From positions 66,349-130,348 of the forward strand of contig CADALO010000002.1 in the NCBI GenBank assembly GCA_902788805.1: DNA of 64,000 bases, given 5' to 3'. This DNA is from an uncultured Bacteroidota bacterium. GTDB lineage: Bacteria > Bacteroidota > Bacteroidia > Bacteroidales > P3. Positions 16,509 through 23,550 of this stretch are shown here, one piece after another; positions within the stretch are counted from its first letter, which is position 1; each line of letters begins with the position of its first letter. Under the pieces are notes generated by a model. That model did no database searches. It was not told the origin of the DNA and was given only the letters and a program-made list of their open reading frames with translations. The translations under genes and the position numbers were made by a program.

Positions 16509-17345
16509 ATGACACGGGAAGAACTTATAAACGCCATACAGAAGAAGCAATCATTCCTCTGCGTCGGACTGGATAGCGACATCAACAAAATACCGCAGCA
16601 CCTTAGGAATGAGGAAGATGCAATATTCCTTTTCAACAAGGCTATCATCGATGCAACGCTTCCTTATACTGTTGCATACAAGCCAAATCTGGCTTTCTAT
16701 GAATCGGCAGGCATCAAAGGTCTTATGCAACTCAAAAAGACTATGGACTACCTCCACAGTCTTGACGACAAGGTGTTTACGATAGCTGACGCCAAGCGCG
16801 GCGACATAGGCAACACCTCGCAGCAATACGCCAAGGCGTTCCTCGACCCACAGGGCGACTTCAACTTCGACTCGATGACCATAGCACCTTATATGGGTGA
16901 AGATTCCGTAACACCCTTCACTGTATACGATGGCAAATGGGTTATTCTGCTGGCACTTACATCTAACAAAGGGGCATTCGACTTCCAGTTCATAAAGACC
17001 GAGTATGACGACCGCAACCTCTTTGAACACGTGCTTCAAAAATCGCAGCAATGGGGCACACCCGACAATATGATGTACGTAGTTGGAGCAACCAAAGCGA
17101 ATATGCTCAAAACTGTAAGAAGCATAGTACCAAATAGTTTCCTACTCGTACCTGGTGTCGGTGCCCAGGGCGGCAGCCTTGCCGAAGTGTGCCGCTACGG
17201 ACTCACCAAAGACTGTGGACTGCTCGTCAACTCCTCACGTGGAATCATCTATGCTTCGGGCGATACCGACTTTGCCCAGCGTGCTGCTGACGAAGCCCAT
17301 AAACTGCAACTACAAATGGCCTCCGAGCTGTCTAAAATCCAATAA
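16509..17345 (+). CDS. pyrF: orotidine-5-phosphate decarboxylase (long type 2 form)
   Basis: 278 aa. [21 protein letters not shown] and VPGVGAQGG motifs. Confidence 0.85.
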
Positions 17346-17346
17346 C

Positions 17347-17859
17347 GTGGACAATAATCTCGAACAACAGATCTATTCAGCCAGACGTCGGTCGCTTCGC
17401 ATATTGCTTGTACTTAGCTTCATAGGCTCGGGAGTATCATTTCTCAGCAACTTTATGACAGGTGCCATTCTGCCTTTTGCAAAGACGATGTATGAGTCTG
17501 GCAGTATGACCTTTCCGAGCGAAATGACGGTCTATGTTGAAGAACTGCTTGAAACACCGCGTTCATTCTTTTTTAGCAGTGCCTTACTTTATGGATTGTC
17601 GTTGACGGGCGCTATTTTGATGTGGAATCTGCGGAAAAGCGGCTTCCATCTCTACACCCTCGCACAACTGCTTATTCTGCTTATTACACTGCTATTCCTT
17701 GGCAGAGAGCACGTTGCATTAGGCAATATAATGTTCACATTACTTTTTATAATATACTATTATATTGCAATGCGCAACCTTGGTGTATTTGACAAAGGTG
17801 CACTCAATGAAACAATAGCAGAAAAAGAAGAAGGCCAGGACAACGAATGTCACAATTGA
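17347..17859 (+). CDS. hypothetical multi-pass membrane protein (start uncertain)
   Basis: ORF 17155..17859 overlaps pyrF in another frame. Plausible start is GTG 17347, right after the pyrF stop. About four hydrophobic segments (ILLVLSFIGSGVSFL, LLYGLSLTGAILMW, LAQLLILLITLLFL, IMFTLLFIIYYYI). Confidence 0.5.
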   Translation: MDNNLEQQIYSARRRSLRILLVLSFIGSGVSFLSNFMTGAILPFAKTMYESGSMTFPSEMTVYVEELLETPRSFFFSSALLYGLSLTGAILMWNLRKSGFHLYTLAQLLILLITLLFLGREHVALGNIMFTLLFIIYYYIAMRNLGVFDKGALNETIAEKEEGQDNECHN

Positions 17860-18722
17860 CGCAATGTCCGTGCAGAATTTAAATTAGATATAATAATATT
17901 TCCCACGCTTACAGCCATAGAAATGTAGCGTGGAATATCGTCATTGCGGTCTGACATACGTTTCTGACGATCGTTCGGTTCAATGTAAACAACGTCGTTG
18001 TTATGCAAGTAATAATACGGCGAGTCAAGCATTTCTTTCTTTGTCAGGTCAACCTCACCCAAAGTTTTTTGGCCATTCTCATCACGCATTATAACAACGT
18101 TTTCGCGCTGACCATAATCTGTAATATCCCCACAGATTGCCAAAGCTTCCAGAATGGTTAGGCGCGTTCCTGGAACGTGGATTTGCTGTGGAGCACGAAC
18201 CTCACCGACCACTGTCACGCGAAAGTTCATCAGCTTTGTAGTTACAACAGGGTCAATAACATATCCATCTTCTTTCAAACGCTGCTCCAAATAATGCTTA
18301 AGGCTGTCCTGCGTAATGCCAACAACAGACAACTGACCCAGTATAGGAAAATTAATTGTACCTTTCTCTGATACAAAATAGCCTTCTACTTCTGCCACAT
18401 ACTGCTGACTTTCACTACTTATATTACTTTTCGACTGGTCTATAACTCCGCGTCTCAATGTGTCAAGATACTCAAGACTTGAGCCAGTAAGAGTTACTTT
18501 ATGAGTCTCCTGATTAAAGGGGATAACACTCTCCGGAGTCTTGGATTCGACATATATATACAACTGGTCGCCGGGCAGGATTGTTGCCGTATAGACGGCA
18601 AGGATATCCTGTGCGCTGTCACGCTGAGCATCGCTTATGTACGCTATTTCCTTAGTGTGACAAGACACGAAGAGTAGCGGTAAAACCAGAAGCAATAATC
18701 TGAATTGAACTCCATTTCTCAT
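17850..18722 (-). CDS. Wza/BexD-type polysaccharide-export outer-membrane lipoprotein (Poly_export plus SLBB)
   Basis: ORF 17850..18800. ATG 18722 gives MRNGVQFRLLLLVLPLLFVSC lipobox. ILPGDQLYIYV, INFPILGQLSVVGIT and RVTVVGEVRAPQ are typical of the family. Confidence 0.8.
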   Translation of the reverse strand: MRNGVQFRLLLLVLPLLFVSCHTKEIAYISDAQRDSAQDILAVYTATILPGDQLYIYVESKTPESVIPFNQETHKVTLTGSSLEYLDTLRRGVIDQSKSNISSESQQYVAEVEGYFVSEKGTINFPILGQLSVVGITQDSLKHYLEQRLKEDGYVIDPVVTTKLMNFRVTVVGEVRAPQQIHVPGTRLTILEALAICGDITDYGQRENVVIMRDENGQKTLGEVDLTKKEMLDSPYYYLHNNDVVYIEPNDRQKRMSDRNDDIPRYISMAVSVGNIIISNLNSARTLRQL

Positions 18723-18762
18723 AAGGATAAGTATTGTGGTTAATAACCTGTTTCCAAAACAA

Positions 18763-19566
18763 TTACATAGGCTTAATGCGGCGTGCAAGTTTGGCAGCAA
18801 GACCCGGACAGAACTGCTTGATGTATGCCATCAGCAACTCATAACGTCCGACAAGGACCTCACGCTTTTTCTTATACACAGCCTTAACAATCTTGTCTGC
18901 AGCTTGTTGAGGCGTAACGCCACCAGCCTGACCAGCATCCATCTTGCCGTGCTGCTTGCCATCCTTCTCGAGGGCGTATTTAGAAATATTTGTCTGTACA
19001 CGACCCGGACAAACAATCGTGACACGAATATTCTGGTCGTAGGTCTCGGCCTGAACAGTCTCGAAGAAGCCATACAGCGCGTGCTTTGCCGAGCTATAAG
19101 CGCAACGCAATGGGAAACCAAAGCGTCCTGCAATACTGGTAGTTACCACCAATTGACCGCCACCACGCTCTATCATTCGCGGCAGGATGTTCTTAGTCAA
19201 AATTACAGGAGCATAGTAGTCGATATCCATAACCTTGCGGATGACACGCATTTCCGTCTCAACGGTTGTACCGCGCTGGCTGATACCCGCATTGTTATAA
19301 AGAACATCAATGCCACCAAACTGATTCCAAGCCTTTTCCGCCAAGGCGTCAAGACCATCACTATCGCTCAAATCGAATGGCAATGCAGCAGCATCGGGGG
19401 CACCAAGTTCTTTGCAACGATTAACCACACCTTCAAGCAAATCGGCTTCAAGGGCAGTGACGATTATGCGCGCCCCCTCTTGTGCAAAACGATAGGCAGT
19501 AGCCTCGCCAATGCCCGATGAGGCACCCGTAATCCAAACAACTTTATTATTGAATTTTTTACTCAT
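18763..19566 (-). CDS. SDR-family oxidoreductase (CapC-like candidate 3-dehydrocapnine reductase)
   Basis: 267 aa. VVWITGASSGIGEA Rossmann motif and YSSAKHAL catalytic Y-x3-K. Only 6 nt downstream of the cysteate-synthase-like gene. Confidence 0.8.
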   Translation of the reverse strand: MSKKFNNKVVWITGASSGIGEATAYRFAQEGARIIVTALEADLLEGVVNRCKELGAPDAAALPFDLSDSDGLDALAEKAWNQFGGIDVLYNNAGISQRGTTVETEMRVIRKVMDIDYYAPVILTKNILPRMIERGGGQLVVTTSIAGRFGFPLRCAYSSAKHALYGFFETVQAETYDQNIRVTIVCPGRVQTNISKYALEKDGKQHGKMDAGQAGGVTPQQAADKIVKAVYKKKREVLVGRYELLMAYIKQFCPGLAAKLARRIKPM

Positions 19567-19572
19567 TAAGTG

Positions 19573-20790
19573 TTATTTTTCAACCAGTTCACGGAACCAA
19601 CCTGCTCGGTCGCTGCCCTCACCGGTATTGAGAAGCACAGTGTCGCCACTCTTTATCAAGCCTTTGTCCACGGCCTGGAAAAAACCGGAATAACACACCA
19701 TCGACGCAGGGCCCATAAGTGTCCTCTGCGACTTCTTCATTTCCTTACCATACTGCGGCAGTTCGGCCTCTGCAACACGCAAAAACGTGCCACCCGACTT
19801 ACGAACCAGAGGAGCTACGAGAGGATAGTTGCCCGGATTGGCAGCCGTGAGGATACCTATACGCGTCTTTATGTCTTTCTTGGCCTCATAGTCTTTCTCC
19901 CAGCCTTCGGTGAACCCAGTGGCAGTGGCTTTCTCCCACGCCGTCACCATCGGGTCACACTCGTCCTGCTGGACAAGCAGCATACGCGGCAGCTCAGCGT
20001 CGGCATCAATCATACCGCAGCGCTTCAGGTCGCGGAAACCCTTCTCGAATGCCAACGGCGATGTGCCACCGGCAACAGCCTGCATATAAACCGTAGGCAG
20101 CTGTCCCATCTGGCGCAGACACTCGTATGCCAACAGACGCTTTGACTCAATGCGCAATGGGTCGGTATTGCCACCACTGATAAGCACGTGGTTTTCTTTA
20201 TGATAGGCTGCAGCCTCAGCTTTGGCATCGCCATAGCCGCCTTTCGAAATAACAATTGGTTGACCTACCTTGCGGATAGCCTCGACAGTGGCGGGGTCGA
20301 TGCAATTGGGAGCGAATTCAGTGAACTTGATGCCGGCCTTTGCAAGATAAGTCGCAAAAGCCACACCTGAGTTGCCAGTAGAAGCCAGGCAATATTCCTT
20401 CACTCCGTTCTCTTTCAGCACCGTGGCAGCCAGCGCTGCGCTGATGTCCTTGAACGAGCCGCTACCGGCGTTCTGGTCGTTGCGGTAAACAAACACCTTG
20501 CAATCAATGCCTTTCTCTTTGGCGTATGACTCAAGATTGTCCCAACGCTCCATCGGTATCAGACCCTCGTTGAAACTGACCACATTGTCGTGCTTCTCAA
20601 TGGGGAGGACATCAAAGTAATAATCTTGGTATGAGCCATTTATGGGCTTTCCAAAACTAAACGGAGTGCTGTCGGTGTATTCCACTTCAGCATAGCCGCT
20701 TCCGCACTCACACTGCTGGTCTTGCTGAAACCAAGTGGCAAAGTCAGCTATGACTTTGCCACATTTCTTGCATCGAAGTTGGTATTTCAT
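19573..20790 (-). CDS. ThrC-fold PLP enzyme with N-terminal zinc ribbon, cysteate-synthase-like (CapA-like)
   Basis: 405 aa. N-terminal CKKCGK...CECG ribbon, PLP-lysine motif GSGSFKD, glycine loop AVAGGTS. The assignment rests on architecture plus neighbours (AONS paralog and SDR). Confidence 0.6.
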   Translation of the reverse strand: MKYQLRCKKCGKVIADFATWFQQDQQCECGSGYAEVEYTDSTPFSFGKPINGSYQDYYFDVLPIEKHDNVVSFNEGLIPMERWDNLESYAKEKGIDCKVFVYRNDQNAGSGSFKDISAALAATVLKENGVKEYCLASTGNSGVAFATYLAKAGIKFTEFAPNCIDPATVEAIRKVGQPIVISKGGYGDAKAEAAAYHKENHVLISGGNTDPLRIESKRLLAYECLRQMGQLPTVYMQAVAGGTSPLAFEKGFRDLKRCGMIDADAELPRMLLVQQDECDPMVTAWEKATATGFTEGWEKDYEAKKDIKTRIGILTAANPGNYPLVAPLVRKSGGTFLRVAEAELPQYGKEMKKSQRTLMGPASMVCYSGFFQAVDKGLIKSGDTVLLNTGEGSDRAGWFRELVEK

Positions 20791-20810
20791 TCGGTCGTTG
20801 ACAGGTTTTT

Positions 20811-20882
20811 GTTGATATGTTGATATGTTAGATGTTGATACGTTTTGGCCATATCAACATCAAACATATCAACTTATCAACG
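20811..20882. repeat. hairpin built from tandem GTTGATAT octamers, between two genes of the sulfonolipid cluster
   Basis: gttgatat gttgatat gttagat gttgatac g ttttgg cc atatcaac atcaaac atatcaac ttatcaac g. The arms are complementary apart from about 3 mismatches. Sits 7 nt after stop 20889 and 21 nt before ATG 20790. Confidence 0.85.
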
Positions 20883-20888
20883 AATTAT

Positions 20889-22154
20889 TCATCCTTTCTT
20901 AATGATATGCATATCGGGCATCGGCTTGTTGTAGAAGCCGGCATCGAGTTTCTTCTTGACCTCGCGGAACACCTCAATGGTGCGGTTGGCGTGTTCCATC
21001 GTGTGGACAGCCGTCGGGATGATGCGCAGCATAATCTGACCCTTCGGCACAACGGGATAAACCACAATTGAGCAGAAGATTCCGTAATTCTCGCGCAGGT
21101 CGACAACGACGTTGGTACCCTGGTTCACATCGCCTGGGAAGAACACCGGCGTGATGGGGCTTTCGGTGACACCCGTGTTGAGACCCTCAGCCTGCAGCGA
21201 CTTCTGCAAATGGGTCGAGAGTTCCCACAGCTTCTCACGGTACTCGGGATGCTGGTTGATAATCTCCAAACGGCGCTTGACACCCCAAACGATAGGCATC
21301 GGCAGGCTCTTGGCGTAGATCTGCGAGCGCATATTGAAGCGCAGATAGGTGATGATATCCTCATCGTTGCAGCCGATAAAGCCGCCGATGATGGCCATCG
21401 TCTTGGCGAAAGCGCAGAAATAGAGGTCAATGTCGTCGGCGCAGTTGAAGTGGGTGTGCGTACCGCGACCCTCGGGACCCATAACGCCCATACCGTGGGC
21501 ATCGTCGATAAGGATGCGGAAGTTGAACTCCTTCTTCAGAGCAACAATCTTGTCCAGCGCACCGAGGTCGCCTTCCATACCGTAGACACCTTCGGTAGCC
21601 ACCAGTATGCCGCCGCCCTGCTTCTCGGCCAGAGCAGTGGCCTGAGTCAGCTGCTTGCGCAGGCTCTCGATGTCGTTGTGCTGATATTTGAAACGCTTGG
21701 CACCCGTCACGCGGAAACCGTCGATCAGGCAGGCGTGAGCCTCGCTGTCATAGACGATGACATCGCGCAGGCTGACGATGGTGTCAAGGATGCTGATCTG
21801 TCCTTGATAGCCGAAGTTGAGCAGGTAGCCGTATTTCTTGTGCGTGTACTCGCACAGCATAGCCTCAACCTCCTCGTGCAGAGCGGTGTGACCCGACATC
21901 ATACGGGCGCCCATCGGGTAAGCCAGACCCCAGCGGCGTGCACCCTCCTCATCGGCGGCGCGCACCTCGGGATTGTTGGCTAGACCCAGGTAGTTGTTAA
22001 GGCTCCAGTTCAGGACCTTCTTGCCGTTGAACGTCATCTCGGGACCCAGCTCGCCTTCGAGCTTCGGGAAATAAAAATAGCCATCGGCCAGCTTGCGATA
22101 CTGTCCTAAAGGACCGCCGGTCGATTCTTTGATTCTTTCAAAAATATCTTTCAT
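20889..22154 (-). CDS. alpha-oxoamine synthase family PLP enzyme (CapB/SulA-like candidate cysteate C-fatty-acyltransferase)
   Basis: 421 aa. NNYLGLANNPEV, DSEAHACLIDG, ILIDDAHGMGVMGPEGRGT and CAFAKTMA (PLP lysine) are AONS-family motifs. Clearly distinct from the SPT paralog at 49872..51056. Confidence 0.65.
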   Translation of the reverse strand: MKDIFERIKESTGGPLGQYRKLADGYFYFPKLEGELGPEMTFNGKKVLNWSLNNYLGLANNPEVRAADEEGARRWGLAYPMGARMMSGHTALHEEVEAMLCEYTHKKYGYLLNFGYQGQISILDTIVSLRDVIVYDSEAHACLIDGFRVTGAKRFKYQHNDIESLRKQLTQATALAEKQGGGILVATEGVYGMEGDLGALDKIVALKKEFNFRILIDDAHGMGVMGPEGRGTHTHFNCADDIDLYFCAFAKTMAIIGGFIGCNDEDIITYLRFNMRSQIYAKSLPMPIVWGVKRRLEIINQHPEYREKLWELSTHLQKSLQAEGLNTGVTESPITPVFFPGDVNQGTNVVVDLRENYGIFCSIVVYPVVPKGQIMLRIIPTAVHTMEHANRTIEVFREVKKKLDAGFYNKPMPDMHIIKKG

Positions 22155-22238
22155 ATCTTTTAAATTTTATCTTTAATATCAATGTAACAATATAGTTGCC
22201 AGTCACAAACGGCATTTGCCACGTGACGGTTCGAGAAG

Positions 22239-22246
22239 CAAAGATA
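22239..22246 (-). promoter_or_regulatory. putative -7 promoter box TATCTTTG for the sulfonolipid cluster
   Basis: caaagata on + strand, 85 nt upstream of ATG 22154. Confidence 0.45.
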
Positions 22247-22284
22247 CTAAAAAATCTTAAAACGGCAAACAATCCTTTAATAAC

Positions 22285-22335
22285 ATAAATAAAAATAAAC
22301 AAAACACATTGCCCCGCACAATGTGCGAGGCAATG
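22285..22335 (-). terminator. orphan terminator-like hairpin plus T-rich tail (minus strand)
   Basis: cattgccccgcaca a tgtgcgaggcaatg (14-bp arms, 1 mismatch) at 22307-22335. On the minus strand it is followed by GTGTTTTGTTTATTTTTATTTATG. No annotated minus-strand gene ends here. Confidence 0.35.
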
Positions 22336-22622
22336 ATGTCTTTTATACAGTAACGGCGCTCTTCAGCCCCTATTTCTTCACAATTGTCTTCACTCCGTAT
22401 TTGTCTTTGGTGCGCACCACTAGGAGGGTTGCTGACAAAATGTATACCCTTTTCAAAATGCATAGTCACAAAAAAGTGCTATTTCGCTGCAAAGAAATGC
22501 AAAAAAATACAAACCCATCATAATATTCTATTTAAAAAGACTTTATCCGAAGATTTTTTTCAATATGACACTTCTGCAAAAAAACACCACCAAACAGACC
22601 CACATAGGACAATCTACCTAAA

Positions 22623-22828
22623 AAGTTATTAACAAAATTCTATCAAACTTTACCAATGTAAAATTTGATAAGAATTTGGTAAAACTTTGAGTAAACTTTG
22701 ATAGGAAGATGGTACCTCGAAATCAGGGAGTTAAAATTTGGCCATTTTTGCCCTTTTTCGGCCCCTTCCGGAGGTGAGTTATTAACAATTTCGGAGGCCT
22801 GTTTTTGGCGAAAATGAGTTTGGCACGG
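22623..22828. repeat. dispersed intergenic element, copy A (inverted relative to copies B and C)
   Basis: Aligns over about 206 nt with the reverse complement of 32040..32250. This includes a 54-nt identical block (22647-22700 = rc 32173-32226). GTTATTAAC palindromes at 22625 and 22778. Confidence 0.9.
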
Positions 22829-22975
22829 CATCCGGAGCGCAGGCTTCCAGCCTGCAAGAATTTCGGCACGGAAAACATCGGCAAAAGTCTGTCGGTGTCC
22901 ATCTATACTTCCACGCATTTTCACAAAAAATCCCTCTACATACAACATTTTCGGGGTTTTGACGTAATTGTCTGT

Positions 22976-23428
22976 ATGGAAGCTAAGAATATTATCGAAA
23001 TAAAGAATAAGAAAGCTGAATATCAGTACTTCCTATTGGATTCATATACCGCGGGACTGGTGTTGACGGGCACGGAGATAAAGAGCATCCGCGAAGGGCG
23101 CGCCAACCTGACGGACGCTTACTGCGCCTTTATCGGCAACGAGCTGTATGTAAAGCAGATGCACATTGCCGAATATCGTTTCGGCAGCTGGCTGAACCAC
23201 GCCGCCAAGCGCGACCGCAAGCTGCTGCTGAACCGCAAGGAGCTGCGCAAACTGCAAAACAAGATCAAGGAACGCGGCTTCACCATCGTCCCTACCCTGC
23301 TGTTCATCAATCCCGAAGGCTACGCCAAACTGGATATTTCGCTGGCACGAGGCAAGAAGTTCTTCGACAAGCGCGAGACCATTAAGGAGAAAGACACACG
23401 CCGCGATATGGAGCGACAGCTGAGATAA
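22976..23428 (+). CDS. smpB: SsrA-binding protein
   Basis: ORF 22805..23428. ATG 22976 gives [41 protein letters not shown]..., the canonical SmpB N-terminus and length (150 aa). Confidence 0.9.
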
Positions 23429-23437
23429 GGTTAAAGG

Positions 23438-23469
23438 GTTGATTTGTTGATTTGTTTGAGGGTTGAAGG
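23438..23469. repeat. four tandem 8-nt units (GTTGATTT GTTGATTT GTTTGAGG GTTGAAGG) in a 54-nt C-free tract
   Basis: Read directly. No cytosine on the + strand from 23421 to 23474. Lies between the smpB stop and the lysC start. Confidence 0.85.
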
Positions 23470-23550
23470 GTTTTCGTTTTAGTCTTCGTTTTCGTAAATA
23501 CTAAATCTATCTGAAGTTAACGTTAAGGTCAAAGTTAAGGTTAGAATATT

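Follow-up and report, generated by a model that had tools for sequence, protein, structure and literature searches.

The locus described here raises the question whether a bacterial operon for sulfonolipid synthesis encodes its own exporter. It lies within a 64,000-nt stretch of DNA from an uncultured Bacteroidales bacterium, referred to below as the window. The original prediction assigned the first three genes of a four-gene cluster to the synthesis of the capnine-type long-chain base, and proposed that the fourth, a gene for a Wza-like outer-membrane lipoprotein, could be the missing route that moves the sulfonolipid to the outer leaflet.

Gene arrangement and intergenic elements

All four genes lie on the minus strand in the same direction behind the box TATCTTTG (Table 1). 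In transcription order they are separated by gaps of 98 nt (421-aa to 405-aa gene), 6 nt (405-aa gene to SDR gene) and 40 nt (SDR to Wza-like gene), and the predicted gene order, ORF lengths and short gaps agree with the sequence. The length of 290 aa given for the OPX (Wza-like) protein is counted from the ATG; a longer ORF starting from TTG reaches 18800. Downstream, there is a 10-nt overlap between the 3' end of the convergent gene for a predicted 170-aa membrane protein and the OPX stop, and a gene of 170–171 aa is called at the equivalent place in the sister genomes. Within about 8 kb, this gene is followed on the same flank by PyrF, an ABC ATPase, an amidase and LptD_2, and the opposite flank holds SmpB, aspartokinase, DHQ synthase and an ECF sigma factor. 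In this neighbourhood, the OPX gene has no Wzc, flippase, polymerase or glycosyltransferase near it, and the cluster contains no N-acyltransferase for the sulfobacin step.

The promoter box predicted upstream of the 421-aa gene is present, with a TTTG about 19 nt further upstream. However, the motif TANNTTTG matches 47 times in the window against 42.6 expected matches. Because the motif is not enriched, the box is only suggestive and is treated as a candidate promoter. A second -7-like box, TATGTTTG, is located at 20861–20868 in the 98-nt spacer ahead of the 405-aa gene. The repeat GTTGATAT that builds the hairpin in this spacer occurs in many copies in the genome of one relative, and other species carry different palindromes at the same site. 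The 40-nt gap between the SDR and OPX genes contains neither a terminator-like site nor a match to the -7 box. Its palindrome GTTAATAAC is not conserved in the sister species and shows no genome-wide enrichment (11 copies in 2.7 Mb).

Table 1. Coordinates of the genes and candidate elements in the window.
Feature	Position	Strand	Basis
Bacteroidota-type -7 box TATCTTTG, candidate promoter	22239..22246	-	motif match; 84 nt before SulA ATG
SulA/CFAT/CapB orthologue, predicted cysteate C-fatty-acyltransferase, 421 aa	20889..22154	-	ORF, homology, diagnostic residues
98-nt spacer with hairpin of GTTGATAT units and second -7-like box	20791..20888	-	sequence inspection
ThrC-fold PLP enzyme with N-terminal zinc ribbon, 405 aa; candidate cysteate synthase, uncurated branch	19573..20790	-	PALP
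Classical SDR, 267 aa; candidate 3-ketocapnine (3-dehydrocapnine) reductase	18763..19566	-	adh_short, NF004825
40-nt SDR–OPX gap, palindrome GTTAATAAC at 18739-18747	18723..18762	-	sequence inspection
Solitary OPX (Wza-like) outer-membrane lipoprotein, 290 aa	17850..18722	-	Poly_export and SLBB
Predicted membrane protein, 170 aa, GTG start, convergent, no known family	17347..17859	+	ORF

The first three genes as a probable sulfonolipid operon

Judged by its sequence, the 421-aa protein is clearly an orthologue of SulA/CFAT/CapB, as predicted. It carries an Aminotran_1_2 domain and aligns over its full length with SulA (PDB 7U7H; E 1.5e-174, 584 bits) and CFAT (PDB 28EH; E 2.3e-154, 517 bits), compared with 238 bits for the best Spt and 180–200 bits for KBL/BioF-type chains. 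[quoted passage not shown] Both lysines are invariant across ten homologues. His140, Cys142, Asn53/54 and Phe114-Gly115-Tyr116 are retained as well; the residues that contact the sulfonate are given in PMC13692747.

For the 405-aa protein, the predicted zinc ribbon (Cys7, Cys10, Cys27, Cys29) and the GSFKD lysine (Lys114) are both present in a protein with a PALP domain (129 bits). The predicted label CapA holds only in part. Among the genomes searched, homologues of this ThrC-fold gene occur only where SulA is also present, but the protein scores 92.9 bits against the archaeal cysteate-synthase model TIGR03844, far from the cut-off of 324.9, in a match that spans its whole length (3–395 on 1–382 of 398). 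In NCBIfam and the PDB it matches threonine synthases best, with E 1e-27 against ThrC structures and E 2e-16 against the sole solved cysteate synthase, yet the threonine-synthase equivalogs (TIGR00260, PRK08197 and other NCBIfam models) are missed with 60 versus 167 bits and 141 versus 303 bits, and the protein lies below every NCBIfam cut-off.

These matches, and a genome in which no second ThrC was found, would fit a reading in which the 405-aa protein is some ThrC-type enzyme, threonine synthase or other, and the trio makes no sulfonolipid. We consider this very improbable. The scores are far under the model cut-offs, and within the genus the gene is found only directly beside a SulA orthologue with the cysteate-specific lysine. 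No canonical ThrC is found in four complete genomes of the same genus, and the complete same-genus genomes that lack SulA contain no ThrC-like gene at all, which argues against a housekeeping enzyme. The gene adjoins SulA in 13 of 97 loci. In a Flavobacteriales locus, a homologue of 43% identity has a CapB-type gene as its neighbour, which lends orthology to CapA indirect support. These comparisons place the 405-aa protein on a separate branch of the ThrC fold, and it is likely a cysteate synthase. As the sole PALP-fold enzyme of a genome with a completeness score of 100%, it is a good candidate for a cysteate synthase of an uncurated type.

The 267-aa protein is assigned to the SDR family by adh_short (176.8 bits) and by NF004825 (237.8 bits, above the cut-off of 215). 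It shows both the classical SDR motifs (TGxxxGxG, NNAG, Y157xxxK) and the linkage to SulA, 6 nt behind the ThrC-like gene, that a candidate reductase should have. Of the 97 loci, 19 have an SDR no more than 3 kb away from SulA. Linkage of the ThrC-fold and SDR genes to SulA extends over several lineages, and homologous compact trios are seen elsewhere in the genus and at L104, a locus from the Flavobacteriales (Ichthyobacteriaceae).

The diagnostic SulA residues, this linkage in several lineages and the co-occurrence of the ThrC-fold gene with SulA support the predicted role of the first three genes, which most likely constitute a genuine capnine-type operon for the sulfonolipid long-chain base. 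The ThrC-fold PLP enzyme would supply L-cysteate, the SulA/CFAT orthologue, judging from its characterised relatives, would condense cysteate with an acyl thioester, acyl-ACP or acyl-CoA, to 3-ketocapnine, and the SDR would reduce 3-ketocapnine to capnine. This would be a compact and clean SulA/ThrC-like/SDR operon in a gut or rumen Bacteroidales.

The fourth gene encodes an OPX protein

Sequence and fold comparisons agree with the prediction that the 290-aa protein is a Wza-type lipoprotein, a real OPX protein. It starts with a lipoprotein signal with lipobox cysteine, MRNGVQFRLLLLVLPLLFVSC, followed by Poly_export (PF02563, 44.8 bits, cut-off 28) and SLBB (PF10531, 27.2 bits, cut-off 27). 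A profile of its family matches E. coli Wza (PDB 2J58) with E 3.6e-21, and the fold comparison with Wza gives a probability of 1.00. The ten best Foldseek matches of its predicted model are all Wza/OPX structures. Class 1 OPX proteins cross the outer membrane with a C-terminal amphipathic helix, Wza_C (PMC9603273). Here, a helix is predicted at residues 270–289 with pLDDT < 50 in the monomer model, and no Wza_C sequence match is found.

OPX genes usually accompany a PCP gene (Wzc or KpsE) or sit in a polysaccharide locus, although this is not a strict criterion; neither is observed in the neighbourhood. The predicted absence of Wzc near the gene is confirmed. The only two Wzc genes of the genome are on other contigs (C9 and C6), each behind its own OPX gene, so that no cognate inner-membrane partner of Wzc or KpsE type is free for the 290-aa protein, a point against the glycan-channel reading favoured below. 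A short Wzz adjoins an O-antigen ligase. OPX partners are often encoded at a distance (PMC9603273).

Conservation of the OPX gene behind the operon

The proposal that the OPX protein is a recruited fourth member of the operon, delivering capnine or sulfobacin to the outer leaflet as a conduit or insertase, draws on the co-directional 40-nt gap with neither terminator nor promoter match, on the lack of genes for glycan assembly nearby and on the retention of the arrangement in related genomes. To our knowledge, no route of sulfonolipids to the outer membrane is established in Bacteroidota, and a dedicated sulfonolipid exporter, if true, would be a real find. On the same side of the argument, lipid transport by TamL has been judged improbable in F. 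johnsoniae (PMC12045153).

Against this proposal stands the comparative evidence. In none of 96 related loci does an OPX ORF turn up within 10 kb of SulA (positive control 4e-125). Of the 143 species of the genus, 51 carry SulA, and the OPX gene lies on the same contig and adjoins the operon in only three, this species (G000) and its sisters G142 and G044, as well as in close metagenome contigs with shared flanks; the adjacency is missing in 48 of the 50 other SulA-bearing species. Where it is present, the entire neighbourhood is syntenic (AK-SmpB ... PyrF-ABC-amidase-LptD), so that the adjacency reflects shared ancestry and counts as one event. In six other species (G007, G008, G077, G088, G090, G115) the operon stops at the SDR gene and is followed by a convergent or unrelated gene.

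Orthologues of the OPX gene with 58–69% identity stand alone in no fewer than six further, unrelated contexts, also in species that carry the operon elsewhere (G007, G133, G115, G088, G057). The two dissociate in both directions. G130 has the OPX gene, with SulA and the ThrC-like gene not found, and G077, G090 and G076 have the operon with no OPX at E 1e-20. This OPX clade occurs in 14 species, and 13 of them have SulA, compared with 51 of 143 overall, but the 14 species are close kin and the co-occurrence is not independent evidence. In addition, the OPX fold is that of a hydrophilic glycan channel, as established for Wza (PDB 2J58), and we know of no OPX protein that carries lipids. On these comparisons the link between OPX gene and operon is lineage-specific and incidental. 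The exporter claim, for which only proximity speaks, is not upheld, a role of the OPX protein as sulfonolipid transporter is not likely, and we give recruitment as a lipid conduit hardly any weight.

Origin and role of the OPX protein

We favour, with a probability of about 0.75, the reading that the trio is a capnine-type operon and the OPX protein its incidental neighbour, an ordinary Wza-like lipoprotein moved by rearrangement. It would stem from a clade of solitary, mobile and fast-evolving OPX genes that was repeatedly relocated within the genus. In the common ancestor with the two sister species, a rearrangement with its breakpoint just past the SDR gene would have placed it 40 nt behind the operon, and it is now probably transcribed by read-through from the operon promoter. 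The most likely function is that of an outer-membrane channel for a secreted glycan, together with an inner-membrane partner encoded elsewhere. Most likely, the gene is a displaced paralogue of the two Wza–Wzc pairs of this genome.

Behind the operon, the gene is held under purifying selection (dN/dS 0.063 versus sister species G142), and it evolves 2–3 times faster than its neighbours (dN 0.19 versus 0.07–0.10 in the comparison with G044). Co-expression with the sulfonolipid genes is likely in this lineage because the gene is co-directional, lies 40 nt behind the SDR gene with no terminator- or promoter-like site between, and is under purifying selection. That the operon of this small lineage captured a wandering OPX gene for use, either to give the sulfonated lipid a way out at the outer membrane or to couple surface-glycan export to the sulfonolipid content of the outer membrane, seems far-fetched to us.

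The OPX protein could also serve another envelope role than glycan export, tied to an ECF sigma regulon, with its placement here still incidental. In five species (G115, G088, G130, G061, G134) the orthologue sits beside an ECF sigma factor and a pair of unknown genes, mostly in divergent orientation. Wzc never adjoins the solitary OPX, and its fast evolution relative to its neighbours would fit as well. However, domains and fold are those of Wza, the relatives at 50–51% identity (G009, G024, G023), again with no adjoining Wzc, sit among sugar-nucleotide genes, and a distant partner is common for OPX proteins. We regard this role as unlikely. Under displacement by rearrangement, the candidate is a neighbour and not a conserved partner of the operon, which spares a misdirected knock-out.

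Comparison with known systems

Similar to E. coli Wza (PDB 2J58), which belongs to the Class 1 OPX proteins and serves Wzx/Wzy-dependent capsule export, the 290-aa protein combines a lipoprotein signal, Poly_export, SLBB and, at low model confidence, a predicted C-terminal helix. It is smaller, with 290 aa and one SLBB compared with 379 aa and two SLBB, and unlike Wza it has some 30 extra residues inserted in the Poly_export domain, a part for which the predicted model is poor. In contrast to the two other OPX genes of the genome, it has no adjacent Wzc.

The trio shares its three-step logic, cysteate synthase, cysteate acyltransferase and ketoreductase, with Cys-CFAT-KCR of Chryseobacterium gleum and with CapA-CapB-CapC, the capnine pathway of C. 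ochracea and Ornithobacterium rhinotracheale (Liu et al. 2022, as cited in PMC11211663). Set against these systems, its ThrC-fold enzyme scores below the cut-off of the curated archaeal-type cysteate-synthase model and the cluster lacks an N-acyltransferase. The 421-aa protein resembles Alistipes finegoldii SulA (alfi_1224, PDB 7U7H) and Capnocytophaga ochracea CapB/CFAT (PDB 28EH) in detail. It aligns with both over the full length and shares with them the catalytic lysine, the extra active-site lysine and the Asn/His/Cys and Phe-Gly-Tyr residues around the sulfonate (PMC9304779, PMC13692747). In A. finegoldii the reductases are reported to be scattered, away from cfat and Cys (PMC11211663), whereas here the three genes are united in one tight operon.

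Organization of the gene unit

The first three genes of the unit (table) are a sulfonolipid long-chain-base operon of known kind, as originally predicted. SulA orthology, the adjacency of a ThrC-like gene and the linkage of an SDR (short-chain dehydrogenase/reductase) gene to SulA support this reading, and the ThrC-like member is a candidate for an uncurated type of cysteate synthase. All four predicted minus-strand reading frames were found. From SulA to the gene of the Wza-like outer-membrane polysaccharide-export (OPX) lipoprotein they are separated by 98, 6 and 40 nt, the latter two as predicted. The OPX gene is the final gene of the unit, since a convergent membrane-protein gene abuts its end. 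Housekeeping genes flank the unit at both ends, one group comprising LptD_2, an amidase, an ABC ATPase and PyrF, the other SmpB, aspartokinase, DHQ synthase and an ECF sigma factor.

Genes of the unit and the convergent gene at its end
Feature	Position	Orientation	Pfam
SulA/CFAT orthologue, 421 aa	20889-22154	minus	Aminotran_1_2
ThrC-fold enzyme, 405 aa	19573-20790	minus	PALP
SDR, 267 aa	18763-19566	minus	adh_short
OPX/Wza-like protein, 290 aa counted from ATG	17850-18722	minus	Poly_export + SLBB
Membrane protein, 170 aa	17347-17859	convergent to OPX	

Promoter and structured elements

The predicted promoter box, TATCTTTG, is present on the minus strand at 22239-22246, 84 nt upstream of the first ATG (SulA), and is a candidate promoter only, because this motif is not enriched in the window. 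A further -7-like box lies in the 98-nt spacer preceding the ThrC-like gene. In the 40-nt gap between SDR and OPX we could detect neither a promoter-type box nor a terminator-like site. This gap contains the palindrome GTTAATAAC, which occurs six times in the window against 0.48 expected. As an operator it was rejected, having only 11 copies across the entire 2.7-Mb genome and not being kept in sister species.

The only hits of an Rfam scan of 17000-23500 were hairpins that resemble plant miRNA families by chance, located in the spacer between SulA and the ThrC-like gene (20791-20888). The palindromic or repeat element of this spacer differs from species to species: GTTGATAT units in the window, with many matching sites in the genome of the relative G014, GGTTAAAAGG/CCTTTTAACC in G142 and G077, and three copies of TGTTGCAACGG in G007. 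A palindrome at 20735-20762, within codons 10-19 of the ThrC-like gene, has 12-bp arms (GTGGCAAAGTCA-N4-TGACTTTGCCAC) that are the same in five species, synonymous positions included, while its 4-nt loop is variable; it is partly broken in G007. A role as a structured regulatory element within the operon is possible. On the minus strand, a strong terminator-like hairpin at 22307-22335, with a T-run after it, lies upstream of the promoter; no ORF terminates there, and no Rfam family matched the region 22300-22640.

Origin of the OPX gene

Judged by sequence and fold matches, the Wza-like protein is a genuine OPX protein. Its lipoprotein signal ends in LLFVSC, E. coli Wza is hit by the family profile at an E value of 3.6e-21, and Wza/OPX structures make up all ten of the best fold matches; the model also has a C-terminal helix, predicted with low confidence. 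The gene is under purifying selection (dN/dS 0.063) and evolves 2-3 times faster than its neighbours. It is one of three OPX genes in the genome, the other two each being followed by one of the two Wzc genes. No Wzc adjoins the window's copy, as the original prediction stated; the role in export derived from this is not supported. A third chain-length-determinant gene (G000:C8:5999-8289) encodes a short Wzz-domain protein of 288 aa, directly followed by an O-antigen-ligase-type (Wzy_C) protein and with no OPX gene near. It is no obvious OPX partner and more likely an LPS chain-length regulator.

The OPX protein had been proposed as the missing route of sulfonolipid to the outer leaflet. The survey covered 96 SulA loci, of which genomes of the order supplied 16 and a species-genome scan the other 80, with flanks of up to 10 kb each; none matched the OPX-family HMM, which recovered the window's own gene at 4e-125 as control. 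Among 143 species genomes of the genus, 51 carry SulA and 14, the window's own included, have a member of the OPX clade (at least 58% identity). Adjacency of the two is limited to the window's genome, G142 (90% OPX identity) and G044 (75%). Metagenome contigs with OPX at 72-75% identity, including the MAG record GCA_017650005.1, show the same arrangement. Every adjacent case is collinear with the window from aspartokinase and SmpB through PyrF, the ABC ATPase, amidase, LptD and MerR, so that all of them go back to a single ancestral event. In six further species, whose SulA is 95-99% identical (G133, G115, G088, G077, G090 and G057), the SDR gene is followed by unrelated genes and then by a block found some 100 kb away in the window's genome. 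This order puts the breakpoint of a rearrangement in the window's lineage exactly at the SDR 3' end.

Operon and OPX gene also occur apart. In G077, G090 and G076 (80-90% complete) the operon is present and no OPX gene was found at E 1e-20; G130 (84% complete) has the OPX gene, and searches of it found no SulA and no ThrC-like gene. SulA is present in 13 of the 14 OPX-bearing species, 95-99% identical among them, owing to their close kinship. OPX orthologues of other species are solitary, in at least six other contexts. The commonest, and possibly the ancestral one, adjoins an ECF sigma factor. It was observed in five species (G115, G088, G130, G061 and G134), where the sigma factor is followed by two genes without a known family, one of about 212-264 aa and one of about 430 aa, mostly in divergent arrangement. 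OPX relatives at 50-51% identity, without adjoining Wzc, lie among sugar-nucleotide and polysaccharide genes.

The survey, the single ancestral event and this dissociation in both directions make the proposed export route unlikely; nothing other than proximity speaks for it. Most likely, the OPX gene is a displaced paralogue of Wza-Wzc systems that a rearrangement placed behind the sulfonolipid operon, where transcription from the operon promoter probably extends into it. Co-expression in the window's lineage is plausible.

The ThrC-like enzyme

The protein assigned to CapA has a ThrC fold, an N-terminal four-cysteine ribbon and Lys114 within GSFKD. It scores under the cut-off of every curated model, with 92.9 bits against 324.9 for the archaeal cysteate synthase model, and it should not be classed under TIGR03844. 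The threonine synthase model gives 141 bits against a cut-off of 303. With the family profile, ThrC structures score above the sole solved cysteate synthase. Similarity alone therefore does not settle the function.

The distribution of the gene is more informative. It is the sole PALP-fold (PF00291) gene found in the 2.73-Mb genome, scored 100% complete, where no other CysK-, TrpB-, IlvA- or ThrC-type match was detected. Complete genomes of the genus without SulA contain no ThrC-like gene of any kind, so that it is not a housekeeping threonine synthase. Within the genus it always directly adjoins SulA, as does a 43%-identical homologue in a Flavobacteriales locus. Taken together, its sole PALP status, its absence without SulA and this adjacency make a putative cysteate synthase the best reading. 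Four complete genomes of the genus gave no ThrC match, which with the lack of other PALP genes in the window's genome points to a broad amino-acid auxotrophy of the genus.

SDR and SulA

The candidate 3-ketocapnine reductase is a classical SDR with the full set of motifs, and 19 of 97 loci show it linked to SulA. In G115 and G088 it is directly followed by a convergent gene (L122:9402-11186, L123:6037-7821) for a 594-aa AMP-binding protein resembling acyl-CoA or acyl-ACP synthetases, possibly for acyl activation of the lipid. Recent horizontal transfer of the three genes within the genus is not supported: DNA identities of the ThrC-like and SDR genes (69-75%) are in line with those of the housekeeping flanks (70-75%, with 80% over one stretch of smpB), and SulA alone shows higher conservation (83-84%). 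In the sister species G044 (G044:C47:41012-42272), the match to SulA is split into two pieces that overlap (residues 1-153 and 148-419), reflecting either a frameshift or a MAG assembly error.

The assignment of the first gene to the CapB/SulA type is confirmed. Over its full length the protein aligns with SulA of Alistipes finegoldii (7U7H, E 1.5e-174) and CFAT of Capnocytophaga ochracea (28EH, E 2.3e-154); its scores against serine palmitoyltransferases and enzymes of the KBL/BioF type are much lower. Catalytic Lys251 and Lys282 are both present. The Asn/His/Cys and Phe-Gly-Tyr residues that surround the sulfonate (PMC13692747) are conserved here too.
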